A stretch of 64,000 nucleotides of DNA, taken from an uncultured Acidimicrobiales bacterium (GTDB taxonomy: Bacteria > Actinomycetota > Acidimicrobiia > Acidimicrobiales > SHLQ01). The notes under the pieces were generated by a model. It was not told where the DNA came from and did no database searches. It saw only the letters and a program-made list of their open reading frames with translations. Positions 20,639 through 56,435 of the stretch are shown one piece after another. Made by a program: the position numbers and the translations under genes. Location: positions 17,338 to 81,337 of the forward strand of contig CAZLWE010000004.1 of NCBI GenBank assembly GCA_964562985.1, given 5' to 3'. Numbering within the stretch: position 1 is the stretch's first letter; each line of letters starts with the position of its first letter.

Positions 20639-22126
20639 TTATGGCCAGAAGGTGTCGATTTCGGCGGTGCCTTCCTCGACGGTGGTGTCACCATTCACGA
20701 TCTGGGTACCAACTTCCCAGAATGCGTTGTTCACGTCGCCACCAATGAGGTCCGAAGCGTCGAATCGGAAGATGTCAGCATCCTGAAGGATCGACACGAA
20801 GTTCGACTCGAGCGGGTTCCACAGTGATGGATCGGCGCCGGTGTTTGCGGTTACGAAGCCCGAAAGTACGAGTTCTTCGCTGTCACCCTGCAGGAGTGCC
20901 TGCTGAGCGGTTTGACGTGCGTTGGCGTACTCAGCGCTTGCGAAGTACTCCATGACAGCCCATACCTCTGGACGATCGTTGAATGCGCCAACGAAGGTTC
21001 CGCCACCGAGGACTGGACGATCGGTGCCGTTGCCTGGGAAGAAGAACACGTCGACTGCACCTTCACTGCCATCAGCAACCGGGGTGCCTTCTGGGAAGAA
21101 GGAGGCGAAGAACGATGCCTGGCGGTGCATGAAGCAGTCGCCGTTGACGAGAGGCTCAGCGTTGTCACGGAACGAGGTGGTAGCGATGCTGCCACCTGCG
21201 GCGAAGACGGCACCTGGCTTGTTCCACTCATCGATGATGATCTGGAAAGCATTGGTGAGCTCTGGGCTCGAGAACAGAAGTTCTCCAGCTACCCAAGCGT
21301 CGTAGTTCTCCGGAGTGGTTGTACGGAGCATGATGTCCTCAACCCAGTCGGTGAATGGCCAACCGGTTGCGCCACCGGACTCGATACCGACACACCATGG
21401 GGTGTTGCCGTCAGCGATCATCTGGTCGCTAAGTGCGAACAGGTCGTCGAGGGTGGTTGGAATGTCGTAGCCGGCGGCTTCGAAGCGTGCTGGCTGGTAC
21501 CAAACGAGCGACTTGAGGTCGTTCTTGTTCGGAAGACCGAACTGGGTGCCGTCGAAGTTCGCGAAGTTGATCGCGTCTGGGGTCCAGTTCGCCTGTGCAG
21601 CCTCGATGATCGACGCAGGTACTTCTTGGACGTGTCCAGCGTCTGCGGCATCACGAAGGTTGCCTGGCTGAGGGAACACGGAGATGTCCGGGTTGGTGCC
21701 AGCTTCGAGCTGAATATTGATTTCGGTCTCCCAGTCGGCTGAGCCCTGGTAGATGATCGAAATGCCGTTGGCGTTACCGAACTCCTGCAGTGCTTGGTTC
21801 AGTGCACCAGCTTCGGCTTCGGATCGCTCTGGACCAGAAACGGTCACAACGGGAACAGCGTCGTCGTCGCCTTCACCGGCTTCGGCGGCAGCAGCCTCAG
21901 CCGCTTCAGCGCGGGCTTCTGCGTCCGCAGCAGCTGCTTCGGCCTCTGCCTGAGCAGCTTGTGCTTCAGCTACCGCATCACTTGCTGCGTCGTCGCCGCC
22001 CTCGGCTGCATCGGCCACGGCGTCTGCCGCACCTTCAACAGTGTCCGTTGCCCCACCACATGCCGCGGCGATCAGTGACAACGCGAACAGCGACGCAAAC
22101 AGCTTCATCCATTTGCTTGTCTTCAC
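20639..22126 (-). CDS. sugar ABC transporter substrate-binding lipoprotein (family 1)
   Basis: Lipobox LIAAACGG, an Ala/Glu-rich linker, then a family-1 extracellular solute-binding body. GTG at 22126 has GGGGGAG upstream; ATG at 22141 and 22108 are alternatives. Confidence 0.85.
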   Translation of the reverse strand: MKTSKWMKLFASLFALSLIAAACGGATDTVEGAADAVADAAEGGDDAASDAVAEAQAAQAEAEAAAADAEARAEAAEAAAAEAGEGDDDAVPVVTVSGPERSEAEAGALNQALQEFGNANGISIIYQGSADWETEINIQLEAGTNPDISVFPQPGNLRDAADAGHVQEVPASIIEAAQANWTPDAINFANFDGTQFGLPNKNDLKSLVWYQPARFEAAGYDIPTTLDDLFALSDQMIADGNTPWCVGIESGGATGWPFTDWVEDIMLRTTTPENYDAWVAGELLFSSPELTNAFQIIIDEWNKPGAVFAAGGSIATTSFRDNAEPLVNGDCFMHRQASFFASFFPEGTPVADGSEGAVDVFFFPGNGTDRPVLGGGTFVGAFNDRPEVWAVMEYFASAEYANARQTAQQALLQGDSEELVLSGFVTANTGADPSLWNPLESNFVSILQDADIFRFDASDLIGGDVNNAFWEVGTQIVNGDTTVEEGTAEIDTFWP

Positions 22127-22173
22127 GGGTCTCCCCCTCATATCATTTGCCCGAATCCTTATGAATACAGGCC

Positions 22174-31360: not shown

Positions 31361-33835
31361 TCAGCACCACGGTTTGAGCTGAACCTTGGCGTCGACCATG
31401 CGTCCGGGGAGTTCGATCTGCCATTCGCCGGACTCGATCCAGGCTTTGTCGGCTCGTTCGCCCGCATCGACTTCGTCTTGGGGTCGGTACGCCCATGCCA
31501 TTCCGACCGCGGCGCCGACGGTGTGTCCCCACATGCCATCGGTGACGTAGCCGACCCGCACACCATCTCGGTAGACGGGCTCGTGATGATGTAGCAGTAC
31601 CGACTCGTCGTGGACGGCCACCTGAATCAGGCGGCGAGCGTTGCCAAACGCCTTGGCCTTGGCCAGCGCTTCCTTGCCACGGAAGTCCTTGTCCCAGTCG
31701 ATGGCGAAGTTGAGACCCGACTGCACCGGGTTGTCGTCGGGGGTGACCTCGTGGCCCCAGTGGCGGTAGCCCTTCTCGAAGCGAAGGGAGTTGAGCGTGT
31801 GGTACCCAGCAAGCTCCATTCCGTGGGGCTTGCCAGCTTCCATGAGCTGGTCGAAGACGTGCACCGCGAACTCGGTGGGGACATAGAGCTCCCAACCAAG
31901 CTCTCCCACGTAGCTCATGCGGTTGGCCCGCACGTAGCAACTGCCGATGTCGATTGGTTGATGGGTAGCGAACGGGAACGCCTCTTCACTCATATCGGCT
32001 TGGGTAAGGCTCGCCACGATGTCTCGGGATGCCGGTCCCATCACCGCGAGGACTGCATAGGCAGAGGTGATGTCGGTGACGGTCGCGTTCGCTTCGCCGC
32101 CGCTTCCTGAGACAGCACCGTGGTTCAGAATCGCTTGTTCGATCGCAAAGAGGTCACGGGCACGCGTTCCTGCACCACCGATCACCCAGAATTCGCGCTC
32201 GGAGATTCGACTCACGGTGAGGTCGGCCTCGATCCCGCCTTTGTCGTTGAGCCACTGGGTGTATACCGAGCCGCCTACGTCCCCGGTGACCGGGCCTGAT
32301 GACATGTAGCTCATCACGTCCGCTGCATCGCGTCCCTTTACAACGAACTTCGCGAAGGAGGTCAGGTCGAAGAGTCCAGCCTTTTCTCGGACTGCGGTGT
32401 GCTCGATGCGGTTGGAATCGTGCCAGTTCTGACGTCCCCAGCTGTACTCGTATTTCGCTTCGATACCGAGGTCGGGCTTCGCGTAGAAGTTGGCGCGTTC
32501 CCACCCCATAACCGAGCCCCACGCAGCACCGTGCGCCTCCAGCCGGTCGTGCAGAGGCGAGCGACGAATGTCTCGAGCCGTCTCGTACTGGCGGTGTGGC
32601 CAGTGCGGCGCGTAGAGCAACCCGAGTCCCTCGACGGTGCGGTCTCGCAGGAACTTCTCCGTGCCGTGGAATTGCTCGAATCGACGAATGTCGACATCGG
32701 ACAGGTCGATATGTTGTTCGCCCTCGGTCATCCAATAGGCAAGTGCCATACCCGCGCCACCGGCGGATTGGATGCCGATCGAATTGAAGCCCGCGGCCAC
32801 CCACATACCCGGCAGGTTCGGCGCCTCCCCGAGGATGTAGCTGTCGTCGGGAGTGAAGCTCTCGGGTCCGTCGAAGATCAACCGCAGGCCAGCCTCGTGC
32901 AGCTCGGGCACACGATCGAAGGTTGGCGGCAGATACTCCGCCAAATGATCAGCGTCTGGATCGAGCGTGATGAAGGACTTATCGGTCGGCGGTGGGCCGA
33001 CGGCTGGCCATGGGTCGGCGACGGGCTCGAACAACCCAACGAGCAGCGAACCACCCGCTTCAGGCTTGAGGTACGCATAGCGGTCAGGGTCGCGAAGGAC
33101 CGGCCATTCGGCATTGAGGCCCTCGATCGGTTCGGTAACCACGTAGTAGTGATGCGCAGCATGCAGCGGCACCTGTACACCATGTTTGAGAGCGAGGTGA
33201 CGGGTCCAGAGCCCGCAGGCCAGCACGACCTGCTCGGCTTCAATGCGCTGACCGTCGTCGGTGATCACACCGATGCAGCGGCCGTTCTCGACGATGAGAT
33301 CATCTACCCCGGTGCCCTCGTAGAGCTTGGCACCGCCCATGCGAGCACCCTTCATGAGGGCTTGGGTCACGTCGGAGGGACCAACCGATCCATCTTCAGG
33401 TAGCCAGATACCACCGACGATGTCGTCGATGTGACACATCGGGAACTTGTCGACGATCTCGGCGGGTGTGATCTCATCGGCGATCACGCCGAGGTAGCGA
33501 GCCATCGCCGCGGTACGACGAAGCTCTTCCCAGCGATGTTCGGTGCTGGCGAGCGAGATCGCCCCGGGTGCGAGGAAGCCGGTGGCCTGGCCGGTCTCCT
33601 CTTCCAGCGTCTTGTAGAGCTCAAGGCTGTATTGGGCGAGACGGGTCAGGTTCTCCGTCGCCCGGAGCTGCGCGACGAGACCCGCGGCATGCCAGGTAGT
33701 TCCGCCGGTCAGCTCGTGACGTTCAAGCACCGCAACATCGCTACGCCCCAGCTTGGTCAAGTGATAGGCGACCGACGCTCCGACGATTCCTCCACCAACA
33801 ACGACGATCTCCGCGCGATCAGGAACATCAGCCAT
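31361..33835 (-). CDS. dimethylglycine/sarcosine dehydrogenase-family protein (FAD oxidoreductase + GcvT folate-binding domain)
   Basis: N-terminal VVVGGGIVGASVAYHL DAO domain and a C-terminal aminomethyltransferase-like domain. 824 aa. Confidence 0.85.
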   Translation of the reverse strand: MADVPDRAEIVVVGGGIVGASVAYHLTKLGRSDVAVLERHELTGGTTWHAAGLVAQLRATENLTRLAQYSLELYKTLEEETGQATGFLAPGAISLASTEHRWEELRRTAAMARYLGVIADEITPAEIVDKFPMCHIDDIVGGIWLPEDGSVGPSDVTQALMKGARMGGAKLYEGTGVDDLIVENGRCIGVITDDGQRIEAEQVVLACGLWTRHLALKHGVQVPLHAAHHYYVVTEPIEGLNAEWPVLRDPDRYAYLKPEAGGSLLVGLFEPVADPWPAVGPPPTDKSFITLDPDADHLAEYLPPTFDRVPELHEAGLRLIFDGPESFTPDDSYILGEAPNLPGMWVAAGFNSIGIQSAGGAGMALAYWMTEGEQHIDLSDVDIRRFEQFHGTEKFLRDRTVEGLGLLYAPHWPHRQYETARDIRRSPLHDRLEAHGAAWGSVMGWERANFYAKPDLGIEAKYEYSWGRQNWHDSNRIEHTAVREKAGLFDLTSFAKFVVKGRDAADVMSYMSSGPVTGDVGGSVYTQWLNDKGGIEADLTVSRISEREFWVIGGAGTRARDLFAIEQAILNHGAVSGSGGEANATVTDITSAYAVLAVMGPASRDIVASLTQADMSEEAFPFATHQPIDIGSCYVRANRMSYVGELGWELYVPTEFAVHVFDQLMEAGKPHGMELAGYHTLNSLRFEKGYRHWGHEVTPDDNPVQSGLNFAIDWDKDFRGKEALAKAKAFGNARRLIQVAVHDESVLLHHHEPVYRDGVRVGYVTDGMWGHTVGAAVGMAWAYRPQDEVDAGERADKAWIESGEWQIELPGRMVDAKVQLKPWC

Positions 33836-33968: not shown

Positions 33969-36413
33969 CTAGCCACGGAGTTGCTCGTTTTGTGGGTCGA
34001 AGGCTGGTTCGGAAAGGACCCTGGCAGGTTTCATTTCGCCGAGGATCATGACGCCGAGTTCGTTGCCGGGTTCGGCGTGGTCGGCGGTGACGTAGGCGAA
34101 GGCCAGACTCTTGTCGACGGTGAAGCCGTAGCCGCCAGACGTGGTGAGGCCGATCGCGTCGGCGTCGTCTGCGGGGCTCGCAAATACCCCTTCGCCACCA
34201 AGGCAGTCGGCAGCACCAGCCACGTCAAGGCCACCAACGTCGACGTCGAGGTAGACGAGCTTCCAGGGGTTACCTGATGGCGGTCGGTCGAGTGCGTCCT
34301 TGCCGACAAAGTCGCCCTTGTCTCGTTTCACGAAGAACTCGACACCTGCCTGTATTGGACCGATGTCGTGAGTGAGTTCGTTGCGAGTGAGGTACGCCTT
34401 TTCGATACGAAGTGAGTTGAGCGCGTGGCCGCCGAAGTCGGCGATGCGGTGCCCCTCCCCCGCTGCCCAGAGTGCGTCGTAGACGGCTTCCATCTGGTCG
34501 ACGTCCATGTGAAGTTCCCAGCCACGAGCGCCGGTGAAGCCAACGCGAAGTCCGTACACATCAACACCGGCAATGCTCATGGGGCGAGCTGACAAGAACG
34601 GGAACGCTTCGTTGGACACGTCGGCTTCGGTGCAGGCTGCCAGCACCTCGCGAGCCTTTGGTCCGACAAGTACAAGCACGCCACGCTTGGTCGAGTAGTC
34701 CTCGATCGTGACGTCTTCACCATCGGCTACCGAGTGGCGTAGCCAGTCGAGGTCGCGCTGTTCGCCCATGGCACCGGAGATCGCATAGAACGAGTCATCG
34801 CCGGCCTTGGTCAAGGTCATTTCGGTCTCGATACGGCCCTGCTCGTTGAGCAGGTAGTTCAGCGAAATGCGACCTTCCTTAGGGATACGTCCGGTGGTGA
34901 TCCGGTTCAAGAAGGTCTCGGCGTCGGGGCCGGTCACCTCGTACTTGGAGAACGCGGTGAGGTCCATCAGGCCGACGCGTTCGCGCACGGCCTTGCACTC
35001 CTCGGCTACCGCGGGATACCAGTCTGGGCGGCGCCAACCGTGGGCGTCTTCGAGGGGCTGGTCTTCGGGGACGAACCACTTGGGTTGTTCCCAGCCGTAG
35101 AACTCGGTGAACATCGCCCTCTTGCCCTTGAGCTTCTCGTACAGGCTCGATACACGCACGGGACGGTTGGCGAGGCGCTCTTCGCCCGGCGGGTGCACCC
35201 GAAACATCCACTCGTAGTCTTCGACCGCCTTCGGGTCGACGTAGTCGTGGTCGGCCCAGCCGAATCGGCGGGGGTCGTAGTGACGCAAGCTGAGTTCGGT
35301 TTCGCCATGCACCATCCAGCGAGCGAGCTCTCGGCCAGATCCTGGACCCCACGCGAGTCCGATCGACGACCCGGTGTTGAGCCAGTAGTTCTTCAAACCG
35401 GGTGCCGGGCCGAGGAGCATGTGGCCGTCGGTCGTGTGGGTGATCGCGCCGTGCACCCAACGTTTGATGCCGACCTCGCCCATCGCCGGAGCTCGGTCGA
35501 AGGCCTCGGCCAGCCACGGGGCGATCTTGTCGATGTCTTCGGGGAAGAGCGGGTTCTCTGCTTCCCAGGGAACGCCGTCCTTCCAGCATTGCTCGGCGCC
35601 TTCGTGTTCGTAGATGCCTATGAGACCAGCGGTCTGTTCCTGGCGGATGTAACCGGCTGCGCGGTTGTCGCGCATGACCGGCATTTCCCAGTCGAGGTTC
35701 GCTGCCATTTCGGGTAGTTCTTCGGTGACAAGGTAGTGGTGCAACACGTTGGCTTGCGGCACGGTGAACCCACTCATGGCCGCGACCTGATCGCCGTAAC
35801 AACCGGCGGCGTCTACGACGTGTTCACAGGTGATCGTGCCTTTCTCGGTCACGACCTGCCATTCGCCATTGGGTTGCTGGGTGACTTCGAGAACCCGGTT
35901 GCGGCGGCTGATCTCAGCCCCCAACGAGCGTGCGTGGTTAGCGAACGCCATGGTTACCCCGGACGGGTCGACATGGCCTTCGCCTTCGGTCCAAATGCCA
36001 GCGATGACGTCGTCGAAGTTGTACAGCGGGTTGAGCTTTTGCAGCTCGTCAGGTGGGAGCAGCTCGATCGGGTACCCAATGTATTTGCCGACACCCAGGT
36101 GCGTCTTGAGCTGGTCGAGTTCATCATCGTTGTAGGCAACCCGAATGCCCCCGGGCGTGTGCAGCGATACCTCTTGGCCGGTCTCGGCAGGCAGTTCGTG
36201 GTAAAGCTCGAGTGCGTAGTGATGGAACGCAGCCGTCGTGTAGTCACCGACCGAGCGTGTGATCTGCCCCGCTGCGTGCCACGTCGAACCCGATGTCAGT
36301 TCGGCCTTCTCGACGAGGATGCACTCGGTCCATCCTTCCTTCGCCAAGTGATACAGCAGCGATGCTCCATGTACCCCTCCGCCGATGATGACTACTCGTG
36401 CTGTTTCGCGCAC
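33969..36413 (-). CDS. dimethylglycine/sarcosine dehydrogenase-family protein, paralog 2
   Basis: Same two-domain architecture as the neighbour (VIIGGGVHGASLLYHL...GcvT-like C-terminus). 814 aa. Confidence 0.85.
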   Translation of the reverse strand: MRETARVVIIGGGVHGASLLYHLAKEGWTECILVEKAELTSGSTWHAAGQITRSVGDYTTAAFHHYALELYHELPAETGQEVSLHTPGGIRVAYNDDELDQLKTHLGVGKYIGYPIELLPPDELQKLNPLYNFDDVIAGIWTEGEGHVDPSGVTMAFANHARSLGAEISRRNRVLEVTQQPNGEWQVVTEKGTITCEHVVDAAGCYGDQVAAMSGFTVPQANVLHHYLVTEELPEMAANLDWEMPVMRDNRAAGYIRQEQTAGLIGIYEHEGAEQCWKDGVPWEAENPLFPEDIDKIAPWLAEAFDRAPAMGEVGIKRWVHGAITHTTDGHMLLGPAPGLKNYWLNTGSSIGLAWGPGSGRELARWMVHGETELSLRHYDPRRFGWADHDYVDPKAVEDYEWMFRVHPPGEERLANRPVRVSSLYEKLKGKRAMFTEFYGWEQPKWFVPEDQPLEDAHGWRRPDWYPAVAEECKAVRERVGLMDLTAFSKYEVTGPDAETFLNRITTGRIPKEGRISLNYLLNEQGRIETEMTLTKAGDDSFYAISGAMGEQRDLDWLRHSVADGEDVTIEDYSTKRGVLVLVGPKAREVLAACTEADVSNEAFPFLSARPMSIAGVDVYGLRVGFTGARGWELHMDVDQMEAVYDALWAAGEGHRIADFGGHALNSLRIEKAYLTRNELTHDIGPIQAGVEFFVKRDKGDFVGKDALDRPPSGNPWKLVYLDVDVGGLDVAGAADCLGGEGVFASPADDADAIGLTTSGGYGFTVDKSLAFAYVTADHAEPGNELGVMILGEMKPARVLSEPAFDPQNEQLRG

Positions 36414-44219: not shown

Positions 44220-46149
44220 CGATCATGTCCGTTTCGAGCTCATCTCGCTTGGGTTCGCGGGGCAGACTCACCAGGAACGCCGCGCCGACTTCGACCTGTG
44301 GATCGAGTTCGATAGAGCCGTCGCAGTTCTCGACGAGCTTCTTCACGAGCGCGAGACCCACGCCGCTTCCCGGAGCCTCATCGGACAACCGGTTAAAGAG
44401 GCGGAACGCCGCTTCGTGGTTCTCGACCGCTATCCCGGTTCCGTTATCTTCCACTCGAATGACGACAGACGCCCCATCAGCTTGCGAAGACAGGGCGATC
44501 TTCGGGGCCCGGCCTGGGTGGCGATACTTCAAGGAGTTCCCGATCAGGTTTTGGAATATGCGTCCCATAGCGATCGGCTCGACCGCCGCCTCGCCAAGGT
44601 CTTCCAACTCAACCTCCGCATCGAGTTCGCGAATGAGGGCATCGAAGTCTTGGATCACGGCCTCGGCAATCGGGGTGATAGGTACTGACTCCACATCTCG
44701 GGTGTTCACCGACGCGCGAGCGTGCTCGAGCAGCTTGTCCATCGTGACGCACATGCGTTCATAGCCATCGACAATGTGGTGGGCGTAGTCGACCAGCTCC
44801 TCTTTTGGAAGCTCATCTTCGGACGACTCCCGCAAGATCAGTTCGGCATATCCGCCGATCGAGCGCAACGGCGTTCTGAGGTCGTGAGCGGTGGCGTATG
44901 CGTACTCCTCAAGGTCGGCGTTCGAACGAGCGAGCTCGTCGACGGTCTCGGCGAGGCGATCCCGCGCGGCATCTCGCTCATCGGCGCGTTCCACAGCGGT
45001 ACTCAGCGCTGCTTCAGCGAGCGCTTGCTCTCGGCGATACCTCCTGTTCACGATCAGTCCGCCGCCGATCAGCAACGCGACCGACGCGAATCCACCGAAG
45101 GCACTTATCGAACGCGAGGTGAGTTGCGCGTTTCGCACTCGCTCCAAGAAGTCGTCATCGGGTGCGGTTACCGCAACCACCCAATCAGGGTTATTCGCGA
45201 GCGTGGTCACGGCGAACTGGAAGTCGGTGCCTCCGGCGGAACCGCTGATCAGCTCGTTTATGTCGCCACCGTCCAAATCCCTGACGAGATTCGACACGAA
45301 GTCGACCGGGGGTTGTTCAAGGTCAGCGGCTTGGGCGAGTTGACCGTCACCTGCGCTGGCGCCTTGCGGGTGAGCCACCACGCTGAGCTCGCGGTCGAGA
45401 ATGAACGACTCCCCATTCGGTGAGGCCCGTCGCTCGGCCATAAAGGTCGACAGTGCGTCGAGTCGAATATCGATTCCGATAACCGCTTCGATGTCACCGT
45501 CGGTGCCTGGTACCGCTTGTGCTCGGGTGACACCGGGGAGTCCGCTGCTGAAGAACACATACGGCGGAGTCCACACACCGGATCCGTCAGCCTGCAGCGC
45601 AAGATCGAACCACGGCCGAGTACGTGGGTCGAACTCGTCCGCGGGATCAAACGCAGCGTTGAGCTCGAGCGCATCGGAGTCTCGGTCGGTGTTGAGGACG
45701 GTTCGCCGACCAAGGTCGTCGATCACAATGTCCTTTGTGACGTAACCGTCTGCTTCGTTACGGACGACGTAGGTGAACGAACCGTCGTTGCGCCCGATGA
45801 AGATGCCATCGAAAGACTCGTTCACCCGGAGCACTTCGAAGAAGACCTCGTCGACTCGAAGCCCGGTGCCTTCATCAAAGTCACCTCGGGCGAGTAGCCG
45901 GGAGAGTTCGGTCGCGGAACGCTCAGCGGGGGCGAGGAAACTCTCGGTGTTCACCACGGTTTCGTTCGAAACCGCGGAGATAACCTCGCGCATGTCCTCG
46001 ACGATCGCGTCCTCGCTCGTGAGCCGGAAGGTCAACAGCACGCTGAGCAGCACGATTAGCGCCGTAACGGCCGCACCAATACCGAACAGAAGAATTCCAA
46101 CCGAACGCTTCGCCGGATCGCTGCCGACGTTGGCCCATGGGCCCGACAT
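44212..46149 (-). CDS. sensor histidine kinase with extracytoplasmic Cache-like domain
   Basis: TM helix, ~280-aa periplasmic domain, second TM helix, then H-box ATAHDLRTPLRSI and HATPase N/G boxes (NLIGNSLKY, DNGTGI, GSGVGL). Confidence 0.85.
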   Translation of the reverse strand: MSGPWANVGSDPAKRSVGILLFGIGAAVTALIVLLSVLLTFRLTSEDAIVEDMREVISAVSNETVVNTESFLAPAERSATELSRLLARGDFDEGTGLRVDEVFFEVLRVNESFDGIFIGRNDGSFTYVVRNEADGYVTKDIVIDDLGRRTVLNTDRDSDALELNAAFDPADEFDPRTRPWFDLALQADGSGVWTPPYVFFSSGLPGVTRAQAVPGTDGDIEAVIGIDIRLDALSTFMAERRASPNGESFILDRELSVVAHPQGASAGDGQLAQAADLEQPPVDFVSNLVRDLDGGDINELISGSAGGTDFQFAVTTLANNPDWVVAVTAPDDDFLERVRNAQLTSRSISAFGGFASVALLIGGGLIVNRRYRREQALAEAALSTAVERADERDAARDRLAETVDELARSNADLEEYAYATAHDLRTPLRSIGGYAELILRESSEDELPKEELVDYAHHIVDGYERMCVTMDKLLEHARASVNTRDVESVPITPIAEAVIQDFDALIRELDAEVELEDLGEAAVEPIAMGRIFQNLIGNSLKYRHPGRAPKIALSSQADGASVVIRVEDNGTGIAVENHEAAFRLFNRLSDEAPGSGVGLALVKKLVENCDGSIELDPQVEVGAAFLVSLPREPKRDELETDMIGA

Positions 46150-47120: not shown

Positions 47121-47303
47121 CCGAGCCGGTTCGTCCCTTCCCCGCGTACCAATTCCTGTGAGAACAAGTGGCTGAAACCACCTTTTCGGTGAAAACCGAC
47201 GCATAATCGTCGAACACGTGGAACCACCTGCAGCAATAGCCAAAATATCGGTTCGGTCAGCTGGGGCCTCGCGTGTAACACTCATTCGCTACGAGAGGCT
47301 CTA

Positions 47304-48329
47304 ATGACCGGCAATAACCACTTCACATTCAGCGACGTCGGCATTGTGTCCTTGGCGGCCGTTGACGCTCCTGAAGTGGTGACCTCAGCAAGCATCGATG
47401 AGCGACTCGCGCCGTTCTATTCGCGCAACGACGCCGAGCCTGGTCTCCTCGAATCGCTTGCAGGTATTCGCGAGCGGCGCATGTGGCCCGAAGGCGTTTC
47501 CTTTATGGCCGCTGCGTCAAAAGCTGGCGAAAAGGCAATCGTTGATTCAGGTATCGACCGGGGAAAGATCGGTCTGATGATCGATTCGAGCGTCTGTCGT
47601 GAACGACTCGAACCATCTAGCGCAGTCACCGTGCACGACCTGCTCGGACTGCCCTCAAACTGTCTGAACTTCGACGTAGGCAACGCTTGCCTTGGGTTCC
47701 TCAACGGCATGCATCTTGCGGGGACCATGCTCGAAGCCGGCCAGATCGACTACGCACTAATCGTCGACGGCGAGGACGTTCGCCAGATCCTCGACACCAC
47801 GATCGATCGACTGAATCACCCCGACGCCGTGATCGGCGACCTGTTCGCCAACTTTGCCACTCTCACCCTGGGAGGCGGCGCAGCAGCGATGGTGCTTGGT
47901 CGCCAAAGCGAGAACCCGGGCAGTCATCGCTTTGAGGGTGGTTTCTTTCGCGCAGCCACCCACTACAACCATCTGTGCGTCGGTTCCCTCAACGGCATGA
48001 ACACCGACACGCGCGGCTTGCTCGAAGCTGGCAACGAAACGGCCAAGCTGGCCTGGGACCACGCAGGCGACATGAAAGAGGGCTGGTATGACATGACCCA
48101 CTACGTCATGCATCAGGTCTCGGAGGTTCACACCCAAGCCATCATCGACACCATCGGCATCGAAAGTGATCGTGTCGCTCGAAGCTTCACCACCTACGGC
48201 AACGTCGGCCCCGCCGCAATCCCGGTAACCCTCAACTCCATCCAACCGGAGCTGGTCTCAGGCGACGGCATCATGTTGATGGGAATGGGTTCGGGGCTTA
48301 ACACCGCCTTTTTCGAACTGCAGTGGTAG
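47304..48329 (+). CDS. oleA: OleA-type thiolase-fold condensing enzyme (KAS III-like)
   Basis: FDVGNACLGFLNGM (active-site Cys), IDYALIVDGE, LTLGGGAAAMVL, HQVS..HT and GNVGPAAIP are blocks I recognise from characterised OleA. Sits directly before oleBC. Confidence 0.8.
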   Translation: MTGNNHFTFSDVGIVSLAAVDAPEVVTSASIDERLAPFYSRNDAEPGLLESLAGIRERRMWPEGVSFMAAASKAGEKAIVDSGIDRGKIGLMIDSSVCRERLEPSSAVTVHDLLGLPSNCLNFDVGNACLGFLNGMHLAGTMLEAGQIDYALIVDGEDVRQILDTTIDRLNHPDAVIGDLFANFATLTLGGGAAAMVLGRQSENPGSHRFEGGFFRAATHYNHLCVGSLNGMNTDTRGLLEAGNETAKLAWDHAGDMKEGWYDMTHYVMHQVSEVHTQAIIDTIGIESDRVARSFTTYGNVGPAAIPVTLNSIQPELVSGDGIMLMGMGSGLNTAFFELQW

Positions 48330-50923
48330 ACGCGGGCACAGTCGAACAGGCCCAGCTGCCCCCACACAATCTCGACGCGCTCGACCCCGCCTGGTCTCGG
48401 CTCGTCACCGCTGCCTGCGCCGACGGCGAACGTACCTTTCACGTGCTGGACTCGGCTCCAGAGGCTGACCCCTCGACCCCCACCGTGTTGTGCGTGCACG
48501 GCAACCCGAGCTGGTCCTATCTCTGGCGACGATTCTTCGCAGGCGTTTCACCCTTTCGTTTCGTGGCTCCCGATCACCTCGATATGGGTTTCTCGGAGCG
48601 AACGGATACCGAGCGCCGCCTCGCCGATCGGGTGTCGGATCTCTCGGCCCTCACTGACGCCATGGGGATCTCGGGACCCGTCATCACCTTGGCGCACGAC
48701 TGGGGCGGACCGATCTCCTTGGGTTGGGCGCTCCAGCATCGTGAACAACTCACCGGCGTCATCCTCTCCAACACGGCGGTCCATCAGCCCGAGGGGGCCT
48801 CGGCTCCCACCGTGATCCGCACCGTCCGCCGAGGTGGGATCGTGAAACGAGCGACAGTCGACTCCACCGCATTCATCACCGGCGCGTTCGAGATGTCGCG
48901 GCCACGGACACCCCCCGAAATTCGAAAGGGCTTCCTCGCCCCCTACGACCGGCCGGAACGTCGAGCCGCGATTCAGACCTTCGTGGAGGACATCCCCCTA
49001 GAGCATGACCACCCGACTCGGGCCACACTCGACGACATTGCTAGCGGGCTCAGCGAGTTGTGCGACGTGCCCTCTTTTCTACTGTGGGGAGCGAAGGACC
49101 CGGTCTTTTCTGATCTCTACCTGCACGACCTCGAAGCTCGTCTGCCGCACGCCGATGTACACCGCTGGCCAAACGCTGGCCACTTCGTTTCCGAAGATGC
49201 GCCGGTCCACGACGCGGTGACCGCATGGCTCGAGAACCTCTCGGCCGTAGCGCCGATTCACGATGCCGAAGGTCTGACCGCGCCCACGACTCTTCTCGAC
49301 CCAATCGCAGACCCCAAACGCGCAGAAGTCACCGCAATCGTCGAGATGACCGGCGATGGCGCATCGATCTCCTTCGCTGAGTTCAACGCTCGGGTCGACG
49401 CGACAGCGGCGGGCCTCCTGGGAGCCGGGGTGGAGAGCGGCGATCGCGTAGCGGTGATGATTCCGCCCGGAATCGACCTGGCCGTCACCGTGTACGCCGC
49501 GTGGCGCGCAGGCGCCGTTGCGGTGCTGGTCGATGGAGCGCTCAGCCCGCCACAGATGACAGCTGCGCTCCGTTCGGCGAACCCGAAGTGGCTGATCGGT
49601 ATCACCCGCGCCCTTGCTGCGGCCCGTGCACTCCGGTGGCCGGGAACGACGATTTCACCCTCCCCTCTCTCGAACGCTCAGCAGCGAGCGCTCAGCACGT
49701 CGCTCGACATCGCCACCCTGGCAATGAACCATGTCGACGATCCGCTGCCGCAGTTACCTACCGCCGGAGATCATGCCGCGGTGGTGTTTACGTCCGGCTC
49801 GACAGGGCCATCCAAAGGGGTGCGCTACACCCACGGACAGATCGCATCGCAGCGAGACAAGATGCGCTCCCAGTACTCGATCACCGACGATGACCGTCTC
49901 GTCGCCGCCTTCGCACCGTTCGCGCTCTACGGACCGATGCTCGGGATCACCTCGGTCGTTCCCGATATGGATGTCAGCGCCCCGGCCACACTCGATGCCA
50001 AGAACTTCGCAGCAGCGATCGCCGCGGTCAACGCAACGATCGTGTTCGCCTCGCCCGCCGCGCTCGAGAACATCGTCCGCACCAAGAGTGCCATCGCGCC
50101 ATCGAAACGGTTTCCGCTCGACGAGGTACGCCTCCTGCTAAGCGCTGGCGCTCCAGTCCGGGTGTCCCTGCTACAAGCAATGCGTGACGTAACACCGAAC
50201 GCAATCGCCCACACTCCCTACGGCATGACCGAGTGTCTCCCGGTGGCAAGCATCAGCCTTCCCGAGTTGGAAGCCATCGGCACCGGCGATGGGGTCTGTG
50301 TGGGTCGCCCGCTCCCTGGTGTTGAGGTACAACTCGAACCCATCACCGACGACGGCCTCGGCGAACTTCTCGTGCGCGCCGACCATATGCGAACCGGATA
50401 CGACCGGCTCTGGTTCACCACCCACCAAGCAACGCGTCCAGAAGTTGGTTGGCACGCAACGGGAGACATCGGCCGGATCGACGAAGCAGGCCTCCTGTGG
50501 GTATCCGGGCGAGCCGCACACATGCTCACGGTCCCATCGGGAACGACGACTGCGGGCCTCGGACCGGTCGGGATCGAGAAGGTCGTCGAACAGATCGATG
50601 GCGTCTACATGGCGACCGCCGTTGGCATAGACGGCGTCGAAGTGTCGGGGCAGAAAGTGGCGGTCGTCGTGCAACTCGATAATCCCTCCGGCTCACCCAA
50701 GCACTGCGGCCTGGAGATCACCGACGCCGTTCGAGCTTCGATCGCGCAATGGCTGACAACGATCGACCAACGTCACGGCACTAACCGCTCGCTCGATGTG
50801 GTCGCGGTGCTCGAAGTACCGAAGTTGCCCGTCGACCGTCGGCACAATTCGAAGATCGACCGAACCCGTGTGGCCGAATGGGCCAACCGTGTGCTCGCTG
50901 GCGGAAGTCTGAAGGGGTTGTAG
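48323..50923 (+). CDS. oleBC: fused OleB (haloalkane-dehalogenase-like alpha/beta hydrolase) - OleC (AMP-dependent synthetase) protein
   Basis: The N-terminal domain has HGNPSWSYLWRRF and HDWGG. The C-terminal domain has the AMP-binding motif VFTSGSTGPSKGV. The GTG start overlaps the oleA stop. Confidence 0.8.
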   Translation: MVDAGTVEQAQLPPHNLDALDPAWSRLVTAACADGERTFHVLDSAPEADPSTPTVLCVHGNPSWSYLWRRFFAGVSPFRFVAPDHLDMGFSERTDTERRLADRVSDLSALTDAMGISGPVITLAHDWGGPISLGWALQHREQLTGVILSNTAVHQPEGASAPTVIRTVRRGGIVKRATVDSTAFITGAFEMSRPRTPPEIRKGFLAPYDRPERRAAIQTFVEDIPLEHDHPTRATLDDIASGLSELCDVPSFLLWGAKDPVFSDLYLHDLEARLPHADVHRWPNAGHFVSEDAPVHDAVTAWLENLSAVAPIHDAEGLTAPTTLLDPIADPKRAEVTAIVEMTGDGASISFAEFNARVDATAAGLLGAGVESGDRVAVMIPPGIDLAVTVYAAWRAGAVAVLVDGALSPPQMTAALRSANPKWLIGITRALAAARALRWPGTTISPSPLSNAQQRALSTSLDIATLAMNHVDDPLPQLPTAGDHAAVVFTSGSTGPSKGVRYTHGQIASQRDKMRSQYSITDDDRLVAAFAPFALYGPMLGITSVVPDMDVSAPATLDAKNFAAAIAAVNATIVFASPAALENIVRTKSAIAPSKRFPLDEVRLLLSAGAPVRVSLLQAMRDVTPNAIAHTPYGMTECLPVASISLPELEAIGTGDGVCVGRPLPGVEVQLEPITDDGLGELLVRADHMRTGYDRLWFTTHQATRPEVGWHATGDIGRIDEAGLLWVSGRAAHMLTVPSGTTTAGLGPVGIEKVVEQIDGVYMATAVGIDGVEVSGQKVAVVVQLDNPSGSPKHCGLEITDAVRASIAQWLTTIDQRHGTNRSLDVVAVLEVPKLPVDRRHNSKIDRTRVAEWANRVLAGGSLKGL

Positions 50924-50925
50924 GC

Positions 50926-51903
50926 ATGCGAGTGCTTCTCACCGGTGCCACCTCGATGATTGGCCGCGAGACGGTGAAACGTTTGCGTGCCCGCGGCGAT
51001 GTCGTGACCGTGCTCCAACGCTCCCCCTTCGGCGACGCCGACGCCTGCATCCAAGGTTCGATCACCGATGCGTCGGTCCTGGTCCAAGCTGTCGCCGAGC
51101 AGGATGCGGTCATCCACCTCGCAGCCAAGGTCGACATCGTCGGATCCTTGGAGGACTTCACTGCGGTCAATGTGGAAGCTACAAAGAACCTCATCGTCGC
51201 AGCCCAGGCGGCTGGGGTGAGCCGTTTCGTCTACGTGTCCTCACCATCGGTCGCCCACGGTGGCGACAGTATCGTCGGTGGCGGCGCTGGGCCCGCCGAC
51301 CCGACGAGTACCAGCGGCCACTACGCCACCACCAAGGCAACGGCCGAGATCGCTGCCCTGGCCTCGTCGACTCACGCCATGCCGATCGTTGCCATCCGCC
51401 CACACCTCGTGATCGGGCCAGGCGATACCCAACTGATCGAGCGCTTGATCGATCGGGCGAAGGCGGGACGCCTGCCATTGGTCGGCTCCGGCCTTGCGCT
51501 CGTCGACGTCACATGGGTCGACAACGCAGCCGACGCGCTGGTCGCCGCCGTCGACGCGGCACCCGCACACGGTGGCGAGTCGTTCGTTGTTTCCAACGGC
51601 GAACCCCGCACCGTCGAGGAACTGTTCACCCGCATCATGGACGCCGCCGACATCGACTGGTCGCCCCGTCGAGTACCAGCCAAGGTGGCCATTGGGGCGG
51701 GAACCCTCATCGAGAAGATCTGGGACCGCACCGACCGCGACGATGAGCCACCGATGACCGGCTTCGCCGCCGAACAACTCGCCACCGCCCACTGGTTCGA
51801 TCAACAACGAACCCGCGATGCACTCAACTGGGAACCGGCGGTGTCGCTCGCCGAGGCCTGGCCGATCCTCGCCGATCACTACAGATCCGGCGGACCTCAG
51901 TAA
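50926..51903 (+). CDS. oleD: OleD-type NAD(P)-dependent reductase (3-beta-HSD/epimerase family)
   Basis: ATG at 50926 gives MRVLLTGATSMIGRE (Rossmann fold) and a YATTK catalytic motif. It starts immediately after oleBC. Confidence 0.8.
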   Translation: MRVLLTGATSMIGRETVKRLRARGDVVTVLQRSPFGDADACIQGSITDASVLVQAVAEQDAVIHLAAKVDIVGSLEDFTAVNVEATKNLIVAAQAAGVSRFVYVSSPSVAHGGDSIVGGGAGPADPTSTSGHYATTKATAEIAALASSTHAMPIVAIRPHLVIGPGDTQLIERLIDRAKAGRLPLVGSGLALVDVTWVDNAADALVAAVDAAPAHGGESFVVSNGEPRTVEELFTRIMDAADIDWSPRRVPAKVAIGAGTLIEKIWDRTDRDDEPPMTGFAAEQLATAHWFDQQRTRDALNWEPAVSLAEAWPILADHYRSGGPQ

Positions 51904-51913: not shown

Positions 51914-52495
51914 ATGGCGATGTCGTTCTCGAAACTGGTGGCTCGGGCAGAAGCCGAACTTCCCGCGGACAAAACCCCCAGCGACGAAATCGTTGCGGTG
52001 GCTAGCACGCAACTTTCAGGCGAGGGACAGGGCGCGGCAATGGTGGGCGGAGCACTTGCCCCACTCTTCGGTTTCTGGGGAATGCTGCTGGCGCTGCTTC
52101 CGTTCGCTCGCCTCCGGGTGAAGGCAGCCAGAAACAATCGAAACCCTGAGGGCCTCTCCGAACAAATCCACTATCGGGTCTTCCACTTGGTCTTCCGGCG
52201 GGATCGCCTCGACGTATATTCGCGCCGGCGGCGCGGCCGGTTCGGGCCGCTGGTCCAGTCATTCCCCTACGACAACATGTCCTACGGCCGCGGGGATCAC
52301 CCGGCAGGCATGGCCATTGAAACGTTTCTCCGCGTCGACGACATCGTGTTGCCCGTACACGGATGGTTCGAGCGAGACCTACGCAAAGCGATCGGCTCGC
52401 TTGGCGTCACGATCGAACCGATTACTGGTCCAGTCTCACAGATCGAAAAGCAGCTCCAATCCAGCGGAGCCCAGATAGCCAAGGAAGCCACATGA
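51914..52495 (+). CDS. hypothetical membrane protein
   Basis: ATG at 51914. One hydrophobic segment (GGALAPLFGFWGMLLALLPF). The ATGA overlap with the next gene supports translation. Confidence 0.5.
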   Translation: MAMSFSKLVARAEAELPADKTPSDEIVAVASTQLSGEGQGAAMVGGALAPLFGFWGMLLALLPFARLRVKAARNNRNPEGLSEQIHYRVFHLVFRRDRLDVYSRRRRGRFGPLVQSFPYDNMSYGRGDHPAGMAIETFLRVDDIVLPVHGWFERDLRKAIGSLGVTIEPITGPVSQIEKQLQSSGAQIAKEAT

Positions 52496-53187
52496 TCACT
52501 ACCGAACGAGTTGCCGACGACAACGTTCTACTTATCCAGCTCGACGACGGGAAGGCCAACGCCCTCACGGCCGATGCGATCGCCCAGATCCGTTCCCATA
52601 TCGATGAAGCTGCAGCCGACGAATCGATCGTCGCTGTTGTGATCGCTGGCCGAGAAAACCGATTTTCCGGCGGTTTCGATCTCGGGGTCATGATGGCCGA
52701 CGACGTGCAAGCGATCGTTGACCTCGTAGCCGACGGGGGTGATCTCGTCGCCGACGCGTTCGACGCACCGATTCCCGTCATCGCCGCGTGCACCGGCCAT
52801 GCCGTAGCTGCGGGGTCGTTGTTGCTACTCGGTTGTGATGTTCGTGTGGGTGCCGTAGGCGACTTCAAGATCGGCTTGAACGAGGTCGCCATTGGTATGG
52901 TCGTCCCCGACTGGGCCATGACCATCGCCGAGACCCGCCTCAGCAAGCGCCATATCCAACGGTGCATCGCCAATGCTCGGCTACTCAATTCGAAAGAGGC
53001 ATGCGACGCCGGTTTCCTCGATGAGGCCGTTGCACCTGACGCAGTAGTCGATCGGGCGATCGAGCTCGCAGCAGAATTCGCGGCGCTCGATGCCACCGCC
53101 TACGCCGGCACGATGGAGGCATTTCGTGCCGCCACGGCAGCAACCATGCGTGAGCAAGCGACCGCCATGCGATCGCTCCCGGGCTAA
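52492..53187 (+). CDS. enoyl-CoA hydratase/isomerase (crotonase) family protein
   Basis: ATG at 52492. The DDGKANALT...FSGGFDLG...GHAVAAGSLL pattern is that of a crotonase fold. Confidence 0.8.
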   Translation: MITTERVADDNVLLIQLDDGKANALTADAIAQIRSHIDEAAADESIVAVVIAGRENRFSGGFDLGVMMADDVQAIVDLVADGGDLVADAFDAPIPVIAACTGHAVAAGSLLLLGCDVRVGAVGDFKIGLNEVAIGMVVPDWAMTIAETRLSKRHIQRCIANARLLNSKEACDAGFLDEAVAPDAVVDRAIELAAEFAALDATAYAGTMEAFRAATAATMREQATAMRSLPG

Positions 53188-53265
53188 ACCGCCTGAACTC
53201 CGAACTCGCGAACAACCTATGACAAGCTGTTGCGACATCTGTTCGTCACTCGTGGAGCTGAGCCC

Positions 53266-55545
53266 ATGGCAATCACCGACATACCAGCATTCGCCCGCGC
53301 GGACGGGCCGGACAAAGTCACCGGATCCGGTCGCTACACCTCCGACATCAACCTCACCGGCCAGCTGACCGCCAAGTTTCTCTACGCGGGCGTCAGCCGC
53401 GGCCGTATCACCAAACTTGACGTCGACGCCGCGCGAGCCATGCCCGGCGTATTTGCCGTACTCACCGACTCCGACGTGCCCGACGTTCGCTATAGCTACG
53501 GACTCGCGGACCGCACCCTCTTCGCCAAAGACGAAGTTCGCTTTGAAGGTGAGGTCGTTGCTGCGGTGGCGGCGATTGACGAAGCCACTGCGATGGCAGC
53601 CCTCGATGCCATCACCTACGAAGTAGAGGAACTCCCTCCGGTACTCGACCTTGAGACGGCGATCGCCGACGACGCCCCGCTGGTCCACGCGGATCTCGAT
53701 AGCTACGAGGTAACGGGCGACACGCCGCATTGGGGCAACGTCGCCACCCACTCCACGATCGAGATGGGCGACGCCGAGGCGGCGCTCGCCAAGGCCGACC
53801 ACGTCATCACCGGCCGCTATATCTCCGATGCCAGCCACGCAACCCCGATCGAACCTCGGGCCGTCATCGCCCAATGGGAAGGCTCCCGAGTCACCATCTG
53901 GACCAGCACCCAGGTTCCCTTCGACGCCCGCAACGGGGTGTGTGAAACCCTCGAACTTCCGGCAAGCCAGGTGCGCATCATCGGCCCACATGTTGGCGGC
54001 GGGTTCGGCGGGAAGTGCGGCGCACACTTCGAACCACACATCGCCGCACTAGCCAGGGCAGCGAAACGACCGGTGAAGCTCGTGTTCTCCCGCTGGGAAG
54101 AGTTCGTGGCGCCCGATCGCCGACGCGAAGCCATGCTGATCGACGTCACCACCGGCGTCATGAACGACGGCACCATCGTCGCTCGGACCGGAACGCTGCT
54201 GCTCGACAACGGCGCCTACATGGCCGACTCGTCGTTCTTTCCACAAGCCGCCGCCATGCACCTGATCGGCCCGTATGCGATCCCGAACGTGCACATGGAT
54301 GGCAAGCTCGTCTACACCAATCATCAACCCTCTGGCTCGGTGCGCGCACCGACGGCTCCGCAGGGATGTTGGGCGGTCGAGTCCCATACCGATGAGGTCG
54401 CAGCGGCCCTCGGTATGGACCCCGTAGAGTTTCGTCTCAAGAACATCGTCAAAACCGGTGGCGTCGGCCCGGCCGGGCAGACCTACGACGAGATCGGCCT
54501 CGATCAATGCCTGACGCTGGCCGCAGAGTCCGCCGGGTGGGGCCAAGACCTTCCGGAGAACGAAGGCCTCGGAGTCTCAATCGGTTGGTGGCCTAGTTTC
54601 GCGGGCAGCGCTGGCGCGTACGCCAAGATGCACGGTGACGGCTCGGTGCAGGTGATCACCGGCGCCGCCGAGTGCGGCACCGGTTCGGTCATGACGCTGC
54701 GGATGCTCGCCGCCGACGAACTCGGCATCGCCGAAGACGCCATCGAGTTGATCTATCAAGACACCGCCGTCGCGCCCGCTGGCCCGGGTGCCAGCGGTTC
54801 GATGACGTTGTTCAACCACGGCCGCGCGGTCGAGAACGCGGCGAAGCAAGTCGCCGGTCAGCTCAAAGAGCTCGCCGCCACTGAACTCGAAGCGAGCGCC
54901 GACGACATTGTTCTGGCAGGCGGAAACGCTTCGGTCGCAGGAACGCCAAGCAAGGCCGTCGCCATCGTCGAACTTGCAGCGGGTAGCGAGACCGGTGAGA
55001 TCCTCGGAAACGGCACTGCCGAGGTGCGCGAGTGGCCGGAGCTAAGTGGATCATCATGCGGCGGAGAGCAAGGCTTCTCGTCCTTCCTCGCTCCCCAGTT
55101 CTCTTGCCATGTCGCTCGGGTCCGTGTCGACCCCGACACCGGCGTCACCCGCGTGCTCGAGGTTCATGCAGCGCACGACTCGGGCACGATCATCAATCCC
55201 ATGGCCGCGCACGGTCAAGTCGAGGGCGGCATCTTGATGGGCGTGGGCCAAGCCCTCACCGAAGGAACCCGCTATGGCGACGACGGTCGCCAACAAAATG
55301 CCGGGCTGCTCGAGTACAAGCTCCAGACGATCGCCGACGCTCCCGAAATCACCACCCAGTTCGTGGAGATCTTCACCGAGAACGCCGGCCCACGAGGGGC
55401 CAAGGGCTTGGCCGAGGCTCCCAACGTGGCTACCTGTGGTGCGGTCAACAACGCCATCACCGCGGCGAGCGGCGTGCGGGTGAAACAGCTACCGATGACC
55501 GCCGAGCGAGTGTGGACCGCTCTCGATAACGAGGAGACCTCATGA
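53266..55545 (+). CDS. xanthine dehydrogenase-family molybdopterin-binding large subunit
   Basis: KVTGSGRYTSD a/b-hammerhead start and a GGGFGGK block. About 760 aa. No CODH-type AYxCSFR loop seen. Confidence 0.85.
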   Translation: MAITDIPAFARADGPDKVTGSGRYTSDINLTGQLTAKFLYAGVSRGRITKLDVDAARAMPGVFAVLTDSDVPDVRYSYGLADRTLFAKDEVRFEGEVVAAVAAIDEATAMAALDAITYEVEELPPVLDLETAIADDAPLVHADLDSYEVTGDTPHWGNVATHSTIEMGDAEAALAKADHVITGRYISDASHATPIEPRAVIAQWEGSRVTIWTSTQVPFDARNGVCETLELPASQVRIIGPHVGGGFGGKCGAHFEPHIAALARAAKRPVKLVFSRWEEFVAPDRRREAMLIDVTTGVMNDGTIVARTGTLLLDNGAYMADSSFFPQAAAMHLIGPYAIPNVHMDGKLVYTNHQPSGSVRAPTAPQGCWAVESHTDEVAAALGMDPVEFRLKNIVKTGGVGPAGQTYDEIGLDQCLTLAAESAGWGQDLPENEGLGVSIGWWPSFAGSAGAYAKMHGDGSVQVITGAAECGTGSVMTLRMLAADELGIAEDAIELIYQDTAVAPAGPGASGSMTLFNHGRAVENAAKQVAGQLKELAATELEASADDIVLAGGNASVAGTPSKAVAIVELAAGSETGEILGNGTAEVREWPELSGSSCGGEQGFSSFLAPQFSCHVARVRVDPDTGVTRVLEVHAAHDSGTIINPMAAHGQVEGGILMGVGQALTEGTRYGDDGRQQNAGLLEYKLQTIADAPEITTQFVEIFTENAGPRGAKGLAEAPNVATCGAVNNAITAASGVRVKQLPMTAERVWTALDNEETS

Positions 55546-56435
55546 CCCTCACGATCGCGACCTCGCTCGATCAGGTTCTGGCCGATCTGGCCGCAGGTGC
55601 CCGTCCCATTGCAGGCGGGACCGACCTGGTCGTCGGCGCCCGCCAGCACAAGTCGGCCATGCCCGAAAGCCTCGTGGCAATCGACCGCCTCCAAGAGCTC
55701 GCTCAAATCGACCGGACCGACACCCACACGTCGATCGGTGCGGGCGTGACCCACGCTCGGCTTATGACCGACGACGCTGTTGTAGCTGATTTCACCGCCA
55801 TCGCAGACGCCGCTGCGCTGGTCGGGTCTCCGGCGACACGCAATGTCGGAACTCTAGGCGGCAACGTGATGAACGGATCGCCGGCGATGGACACCGGCGC
55901 ACCGCTGGTCGTGCTCGGAGCGGTCGCGGAGCTGGCGAGCACCGAAGGGACTCGATCGGTATCGCTCGACGAGCTGTGGCTTGGCCCCGGCACGACGAGC
56001 GCTCGTAGCGACGAGCTCTGCACGGCACTAACCATCCCGAACCAGACGGGCTCCTCGGGCTCGGCATACGTGCGTCTCGAATATCGCCGAGCGATGGAGA
56101 TCGCTGTGGTCGGTGCGGCCGCGAACGTCACCCTCAACAACGATGGCTCGGTGGAAAGTGCTCGCGTAGCGCTGACTGCAGTCGCACCAACGATCCTCGC
56201 GGTTGATGGACTCGATCGACTGGCTGGTCTCCATCCGGATGAGGCCGCCGAGGCTGCCTCGGCGGCCGCGTCGGAACAAGCCACTCCAATCAGTGATCTG
56301 CGGGCGAGCGATCGCTACCGACGACACACGATTGGGGTCATGGCAAGACGCGCTGTTGAAGCGGCAGCTCGCCGAGCAGCCGGAGAAGACATCGCAGTAC
56401 CCGTGAATCGAGCACTCGGAATTGGAGCGTCCTGA
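55542..56435 (+). CDS. XDH-family FAD-binding medium subunit
   Basis: IAGGTDLVVGARQ and GTLGGN motifs (CoxM/FAD_binding_5 type). Overlaps the large-subunit gene by 4 nt. Confidence 0.85.
   Translation: MTLTIATSLDQVLADLAAGARPIAGGTDLVVGARQHKSAMPESLVAIDRLQELAQIDRTDTHTSIGAGVTHARLMTDDAVVADFTAIADAAALVGSPATRNVGTLGGNVMNGSPAMDTGAPLVVLGAVAELASTEGTRSVSLDELWLGPGTTSARSDELCTALTIPNQTGSSGSAYVRLEYRRAMEIAVVGAAANVTLNNDGSVESARVALTAVAPTILAVDGLDRLAGLHPDEAAEAASAAASEQATPISDLRASDRYRRHTIGVMARRAVEAAARRAAGEDIAVPVNRALGIGAS

Follow-up and report, generated by a model that had tools for sequence, protein, structure and literature searches.

Does an uncultured member of the Acidimicrobiales carry a working set of genes for making long-chain alkenes? 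The question is raised by positions 47304-51903 of the window, the whole 64,000-nucleotide (nt) stretch of contig CAZLWE010000004.1 that was analysed here (G+C about 61%). A sequence-only reading had recognized there an oleA-oleBC-oleD cluster for condensing fatty acyl chains head-to-head, with the OleB and OleC enzymes fused into one protein. Judging by gene content, catalytic residues and synteny, the locus very probably is a functional three-gene ole operon, and its products would turn pairs of fatty acyl-CoAs into long-chain internal cis-alkenes.

The three open reading frames (ORFs) of the cluster occur on the forward strand and run in the same direction (Table 1; the third, in its longest form in the window's ORF list, spans 50878-51903), and the claim that they overlap or abut is borne out at both junctions. 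The GTG start of oleBC overlaps the oleA stop codon within a shared stretch of 7 nt (GTGGTAG), while the oleBC stop codon (TAG) is followed by 2 nt and then by an ATG at 50926, upstream of which is a Shine-Dalgarno-like run, GAAGGGG. The longest oleD ORF would encode 341 amino acids (aa). Because alignments with the family models for OleD, and with every homologue, begin only at its residue 17 (MRVLLTGATS), the true start is most likely the ATG at 50926, and the 46-nt overlap of oleBC and oleD implied by a start at 50878 is probably not real. The three genes are translationally coupled, all four enzyme modules are contained in 4.6 kb, and none of the ORFs is interrupted by a frameshift or an internal stop. 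Pfam domains were found in all three proteins, namely ACP_syn_III and ACP_syn_III_C in the first, Abhydrolase_1 and AMP-binding in the second and Epimerase/3Beta_HSD in the third (E-values of 1e-10 to 1e-54), at a resolution that extends to the superfamily level only. Chance does not account for these features.

The first gene product had been taken for an OleA-like condensing enzyme, with a grouping alongside FabH named as the result that would speak against it. In a search of PDB sequences, the protein matched the crystal sequences of Xanthomonas campestris OleA, or XcOleA (3ROW, 3S21, 4KTI and others), at 286 bits (E 2e-84), whereas the chains of FabH, PqsD and CorB reached at most 63 bits (best FabH E 1e-16), and the full-length pairwise identity to XcOleA is 43%. 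It also scores 403.5 bits on NCBIfam model NF006720, above the cut-off of 285. Despite its generic name, this model effectively represents the OleA family, since XcOleA (in a sequence rebuilt from the PDB alignment) matches it at 478 bits. The FabH models gave 87-102 bits versus cut-offs of 249-292, with TIGR00747 at 87 versus 292. By these comparisons the condensing enzyme belongs with OleA and not with FabH.

The residues studied in XcOleA, Glu117, Cys143, His285 and Asn315 (PMC7064751 reference list; 10.1101/856955), align with Glu103, Cys129, His270 and Asn300 of the window protein, so that both the Cys and the Glu singled out for checking are present, and all four are invariant across 25 homologues. 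Moreover, residues 103-130 fit the pattern EPxx[AS]x(14,18)DxxNACL with which Surger et al. searched for OleA (PMC7158056), the spacer being x16. Since the Cys-His-Asn triad and the Glu are found in a single protein, the alignment places this OleA in the homodimeric type and not in the heterodimeric LstAB/NltAB type (10.1101/856955).

The second gene encodes, as had been claimed, a hydrolase fused to an AMP-dependent synthetase, for both domains reside in a single ORF of 866 aa, and the two peptides quoted in support occur in it at residues 59-69 (HGNPSWSYLWR) and 490-499 (TSGSTGPSKG). The N-terminal half is a haloalkane-dehalogenase-like alpha/beta hydrolase with an intact catalytic pentad, consisting of Asn61, Asp126, Trp127, Asp259 and His287 and invariant in 122 fused homologues. 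Its PDB matches are haloalkane dehalogenases (HLDs), including the HLD-III enzyme DhmeA (8CKP, 8OOH), whose pentad is N63/D129/W130/D258/H286 (PMC10503415); the two pentads agree in composition and spacing. In the alignment to the PDB hits, the position of the catalytic Glu of HLD-II enzymes is taken by Asn150. Subfamily III, with its Asp-His-Asp plus Asn-Trp pentad, includes the OleB of X. campestris, and by the same alignments the N-terminal domain has a complete subfamily-III pentad of the OleB type. Its place in an ole cluster, joined to an adenylating enzyme, suggests that its physiological reaction is the decarboxylation of beta-lactones and not dehalogenation.

The C-terminal half of the fusion contains the motifs expected of an ANL adenylating enzyme, as defined in 10.1101/856955. 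These are A3 (TSGSTGPSKG, quoted above), A5 (YGMTE, 633-637), A7 (TGD, 713-715), A8 (Arg730) and A10 (Lys844), and the motif residues are mostly invariant in the 122 fused homologues, with slight variation at two A7 positions and one A3 position. Beta-lactone synthetases have been recognized in published work with a machine-learning classifier based on 34 active-site residues and not by a discrete motif, and we used the ranking of family models instead. The top three NCBIfam models for the domain are PRK09274 (331 bits), OleC-Xanthomonas (257) and OleC-Shewanella (233), compared with 173 bits for the best generic ligase model. PRK09274 can itself be tied to beta-lactone synthetases, because the ligases of two plasmid-borne, lipstatin-type clusters, L033 and L034, pass it at 582 and 617 bits; for them the OleC models rank second. 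By this measure all three leading models are linked to beta-lactone synthetases. On model ranking, then, the C-terminal half behaves as a beta-lactone-synthetase-type adenylating enzyme, so that the beta-lactone synthetase check named in the sequence-only reading speaks for Ole.

The third gene had been called a 3-beta-HSD-type reductase, which its Pfam domains support, and the OleD models rank first among its NCBIfam matches (NF042422, 269 bits; NF042423, 228 bits), followed at some distance by the HpnA family (114 bits). The protein has the nucleotide-binding motif TGATSMIG together with Ser108, Tyr133 and Lys137, and its catalytic residues are invariant in 22 homologues. All four modules, OleA, OleB, OleC and OleD, are present with conserved catalytic residues, and the full OleABCD set of the sequence-only reading is confirmed to that extent.

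The cluster also recurs in related genomes, and relatives of OleBC are very numerous. Among the 120 best matches of OleBC (identity at least 52%; a few truncated), every one contains both the Abhydrolase_1 and the AMP-binding domain, and those with a named source come from Acidimicrobiales, Acidimicrobiia, Ilumatobacter or Ilumatobacteraceae; two homologues that are 55% identical carry the JGI name 'olefin beta-lactone synthetase'. The closest OleBC loci in the genome collection belong to metagenome-assembled genomes (MAGs) of uncultured Acidimicrobiales, at 78-87% identity. Searches with the window proteins by tblastn revealed the order oleA-oleBC-oleD in all related loci of sufficient length, and the conserved triad spans Acidimicrobiia, Kineococcus (OleBC identity 42-44%) and Brevibacterium (38-39%), with OleA 42-44% identical to the proteins of both genera. 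The 7-nt overlap of oleA and oleBC is repeated in many Acidimicrobiia loci. An upstream histidine phosphatase gene, on the other hand, is syntenic in Acidimicrobiia-type loci only, including two contigs binned as Verrucomicrobiota.

Those two contigs, L005 and L027, come from Verrucomicrobiales and Chthoniobacterales MAGs, and carry an Acidimicrobiales-like arrangement of histidine phosphatase, oleA, oleBC and oleD, with OleA 70-73% and OleBC 59% identical to the window proteins. Either mis-binning or lateral transfer could account for them.

Some relatives display a two-gene form of the cluster, in which oleA is followed by a gene for a natural OleB-OleC-OleD triple fusion. One such protein, P0044 (1248 aa), is encoded at 5001-8747 of L030-L032; its OleBC part (residues 1-852) and its OleD part (928-1247) are separated by about 75 aa of low-complexity linker. 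Another, P0034, is 1237 aa long. At least 24 contigs, drawn from different samples, encode the 1248-aa protein without any sequence difference, and so it is not an artefact of gene calling. In L030-L032 a thiolase gene is followed by genes for a short-chain dehydrogenase/reductase (SDR) and a histidine phosphatase, then by a pair of DUF3179 genes on the opposite strand, and then by oleA. No mention of a triple fusion was found in the ole literature examined.

If the four modules act as their counterparts do in the established Ole chemistry of Xanthomonas and Micrococcus (PMC7158056, PMC7064751), the pathway can be outlined as follows. An OleA homodimer would load one acyl chain onto Cys129, and Glu103 of the partner subunit would deprotonate the alpha-carbon of that chain, so that the resulting carbanion could attack a second acyl-CoA and yield a 2-alkyl-3-ketoalkanoic acid without decarboxylation. 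OleD, with NAD(P)H, would then reduce the keto group to give the 2-alkyl-3-hydroxy acid. The OleC domain, with ATP, would adenylate the carboxylate, and the beta-hydroxyl would close a cis-beta-lactone. Finally, the OleB domain, with Asp126 as nucleophile, His287 as base and Asp259 as acid, would remove CO2 from the lactone and release a cis-olefin of 2n-1 carbons. The OleB-OleC fusion and the overlapping or abutting genes would fit with a labile lactone that is handed over inside one assembly. We infer the enzyme activities, the expression of the operon, the chain length and physiological role of its product and the production of olefin itself from these features; in a published survey, all genera that had ole orthologues and analysed lipid profiles produced olefins (PMC7158056).

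Several observations weigh against a functional ole operon. The OleC domain falls short of all three curated cut-offs (257 of 900 bits for NF045786, 233 of 850 for NF045785 and 331 of 478 for PRK09274), and OleD likewise of its own (269 versus 580). By sequence model alone, the two are divergent relatives and not certified equivalogs. Searches of PDB sequences gave no solved OleB, OleC or OleD structure as a match, just generic haloalkane dehalogenases, FadD13 and SDRs. A sigma-70 consensus scan detected no full promoter, and a terminator scan detected no consensus terminator, just weak terminator-like matches inside genes. Lastly, no chemical or expression data were found for this organism or for any other member of the Acidimicrobiia.

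As regards the cut-offs, the three OleC-domain models were tuned to standalone proteins and to those of proteobacteria. For the fusions of Brevibacterium and Kineococcus the models rank identically, with 331/268/235 and 351/266/235 bits, and these proteins fall short of the cut-offs as well; since these scores are nearly equal to its own, the window fusion behaves like other actinobacterial fused OleBC proteins. The OleD family, in turn, is divergent, because NltD, a functional homologue, is just 36% identical to XcOleD (10.1101/856955).

Could the cluster stop short of an olefin? It might end at the beta-lactone, giving a lipophilic product like those of the oleACD-type lipstatin and nocardiolactone clusters, or, should the beta-keto acid lose its CO2 spontaneously, at a ketone. 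OleA, OleC and OleD are indeed common to the olefin and beta-lactone pathways (PMC7064751), and the model that best matches the OleC domain, PRK09274, is one that the lipstatin-type ligases pass. What separates hydrocarbon clusters from those for beta-lactone natural products is an intact OleB, the latter being defined by the lack of oleB (PMC7064751), whereas the window has an OleB with a conserved pentad, covalently fused to OleC. Moreover, there is a single OleA with both Cys and Glu and no A/B pair, and no gene for a non-ribosomal peptide synthetase (NRPS), formyltransferase, P450 or glycosyltransferase lies beside the cluster, unlike the situation in L033 and L034. We consider an end product of this kind distinctly unlikely, and return to a cluster that runs through to the alkene.

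Another possibility is an intact cluster that, being silent or in decay, leaves no mark on the lipidome, a suggestion that draws on the negative outcome of the promoter scan and of the search for expression data. Decay is hard to reconcile with uninterrupted ORFs in which every catalytic residue has been kept, and with Ole proteins that share 78-92% identity with their counterparts in close relatives, where the genes stand in the same order. Upstream of oleA, the block GACGCATAATC is invariant in the window and in the related loci L001, L002 and L003, while the sequence surrounding it varies, and the block may hold a -10 promoter element (Table 1). Intact ORFs, conserved catalytic residues, high identity and a conserved upstream block together indicate that the cluster is under purifying selection, and a silent or decaying state is therefore very unlikely. 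Scans of the window for tRNA genes and Rfam families found nothing.

That the genes are unrelated housekeeping neighbours (a FabH-like initiator, a haloalkane dehalogenase-acyl-CoA ligase fusion and a sugar-nucleotide/sterol-type epimerase/dehydrogenase) is extremely unlikely, for although homologues carry generic annotations, such as 'alpha/beta fold hydrolase' or 'acyl-CoA synthetase/pimeloyl-ACP methyl ester carboxylesterase', Pfam resolves the proteins to superfamilies only and the OleC and OleD scores lie under the curated cut-offs, the FabH models fail where the OleA model is passed, Ole-specific models rank above all generic ones, and the three genes are coupled and strictly co-occur at OleBC identities down to 38%.

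Table 1. Positions in the window of the ole genes, their domains, upstream signals and adjoining downstream genes.
Feature	Position	Strand	Remarks
Candidate -10 element CATAAT	47202-47207	+	Within the conserved block at 47198-47208, about 97 nt 5' of oleA
Shine-Dalgarno-like GAGAGG	47293-47298	+	5 nt 5' of the oleA ATG; invariant in 4 of 4 aligned upstream regions
oleA	47304-48329	+	341 aa; catalytic Glu103, Cys129, His270, Asn300
oleBC, single fusion protein	48323-50923	+	866 aa; GTG start
OleB domain, putative subfamily-III haloalkane-dehalogenase-like beta-lactone decarboxylase	48425-49252	+	About residues 35-310 of the fusion; Abhydrolase_1 4.5e-23
OleC domain, putative beta-lactone-synthetase-type ANL adenylating enzyme	49322-50902	+	About residues 334-860 of the fusion; AMP-binding 1.1e-53
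oleD, putative extended-SDR 2-alkyl-3-oxoalkanoate reductase	50926-51903	+	325 aa from the ATG at 50926 (most likely start)
193-aa ORF	51914-52495	+	One transmembrane segment (hydrophobic, about residues 43-66); directly 3' of oleD
Crotonase/enoyl-CoA hydratase family gene	52492-53187	+	Scores 215 bits on NF004858 (cut-off 171)

The small membrane protein and the crotonase encoded just downstream of oleD had been put forward as possible accessory members, and the ATGA coupling described between them is present at 52492-52495. The 193-aa ORF, which has no Pfam or NCBIfam match, has a counterpart in L001-L003 only, and it diverges much faster than the ole genes, the copy in L002 being 37% identical, compared with 78-84% for the Ole proteins there. 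Among the related loci, L003 alone has a crotonase gene at the corresponding place; the gene is missing from that place in L002 and lies on the opposite strand in L024, L001 ends before the position is reached, and in L004 and L006 a counterpart of neither protein was found. Synteny thus gives the proposed accessory role no support, both genes being in place only in L003, and because neither tracks the cluster across related loci we have excluded them from the ole system.

Farther downstream, at 53230-56435 (forward strand), are genes for molybdopterin-binding and FAD-binding subunits of the xanthine dehydrogenase/CO dehydrogenase family, and a homologue of the large subunit is likewise found downstream of the ole cluster in several Acidimicrobiales loci (L002, L003, L004, L006 and L024). 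On the other side, a thiolase gene (41993-43162, forward strand) lies upstream of the cluster, and between it and the histidine phosphatase gene are a response regulator gene and a gene for a Cache-domain histidine kinase, both on the opposite strand (43791-46149, reverse strand).

Elsewhere in the window, a tandem pair of paralogues, each about 820 aa long and with a FAD-oxidoreductase (DAO) and an aminomethyltransferase (GCV_T) domain, is encoded on the reverse strand (31361-33835 and 33969-36413); they are of the dimethylglycine/sarcosine dehydrogenase type, which would agree with the use of methylated amines or glycine betaine. A 309-aa ORF on the forward strand (16346-17275) has an N-terminal IS200-like Y1 transposase domain (E 1.4e-8) and is about twice as long as a typical IS200 transposase. 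The reverse strand also encodes a 454-aa protein with RTX calcium-binding repeats and a C-terminal transglycosylase-like domain (40426-41790), as well as two large ORFs of 736 aa and 500 aa (18376-22141) beside a gene for an ABC permease; neither matches a Pfam family significantly, although the C-terminus of the 736-aa product is weakly permease-like.

The locus adds no new mechanism, since the pathway was already established in all four of its chemical steps, as was the fusion of OleB with OleC. What is mildly new is a modest extension of host range, in that the cluster occurs in an uncultured member of the Acidimicrobiales, outside the Micrococcus group. A survey from 2020 named the Micrococcales as the sole Gram-positive order with an ole cluster (PMC7158056), and a MAG study from 2026 lists oleBC in 'Actinobacteriota'; our searches of the literature and supplements for Acidimicrobiia together with ole genes found no link. 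The value of the finding is modest, and it is taxonomic and ecological, for an intact and strongly conserved ole cluster recurs across many Acidimicrobiia genomes, from which it would be predicted that uncultured aquatic members of the class hold long-chain alkenes in their membranes and feed biogenic hydrocarbon pools. Whether the pathway is a conserved, vertically kept trait of much of the uncultured aquatic Acidimicrobiia, in the form of either oleA-oleBC-oleD or the two-gene, triple-fusion arrangement, seems to us evenly balanced. If it is, natural waters would have an unrecognized source of very-long-chain alkenes in the abundant planktonic and sediment members of the class. The triple fusion would in that case offer a natural single-chain OleBCD assembly for structural work, and such proteins could conceivably be of use in enzymology or engineering.

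How, then, does the locus compare with known systems? With the HLD-III enzymes DhmeA, DmbC and DrbA, the window OleB shares the fold family and the Asp-His-Asp plus Asn-Trp pentad (PMC10503415); unlike them, it is fused to an adenylating enzyme within an ole cluster. The lipstatin and nocardiolactone clusters (lstABCDEF, nltABCD) encode enzymes resembling OleA, OleC (PRK09274) and OleD and have the first three chemical steps in common with the window cluster (PMC7064751; 10.1101/856955). They are without OleB, however, rely on a two-protein OleA-like heterodimer and often include an NRPS and a formyltransferase, whereas the window combines a single OleA with an OleB domain and lacks tailoring genes. 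A search of plasmids for annotated ole clusters found none and retrieved two clusters of this lipstatin type instead, one on a large plasmid of Streptomyces sp. NBC_01001 (L033, 3901-12890) and the other on a large plasmid of Rhodococcus qingshengii (L034, 3931-12598). Both contain an OleA-like/KAS III gene, a small ORF, a PRK09274 ligase, an SDR, an NRPS and a formyltransferase, with no OleB.

The OleABCD system of X. campestris is the one characterized by biochemistry and structure. Its OleA is the 43%-identical protein whose catalytic residues are matched in the window, its OleB likewise has the HLD-III pentad, and the OleC and OleD models of its lineage are among the best matches of the window proteins, although the window scores are far below equivalog cut-offs tuned to proteobacterial proteins. 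The organization differs, in that X. campestris has four genes with OleB and OleC separate, whereas in the window the two are fused. The fused, three-gene form was known first from Micrococcus luteus and is typical of Micrococcales (PMC7064751, PMC7158056); the OleBC fusion has its own KEGG orthologue, K25044 (PMC13170169). Compared by way of the Kineococcus and Brevibacterium loci and the NCBIfam models, the window agrees with this type in the order of its genes, in having OleB and OleC in one polypeptide, in a single OleA of the homodimer type and in how tightly the genes are coupled. The description of the fusion as a Micrococcus-type arrangement is therefore right as to its form and needs amending as to its host, which is a member of the Acidimicrobiales with an OleBC 38-44% identical to those of Brevibacterium and Kineococcus.

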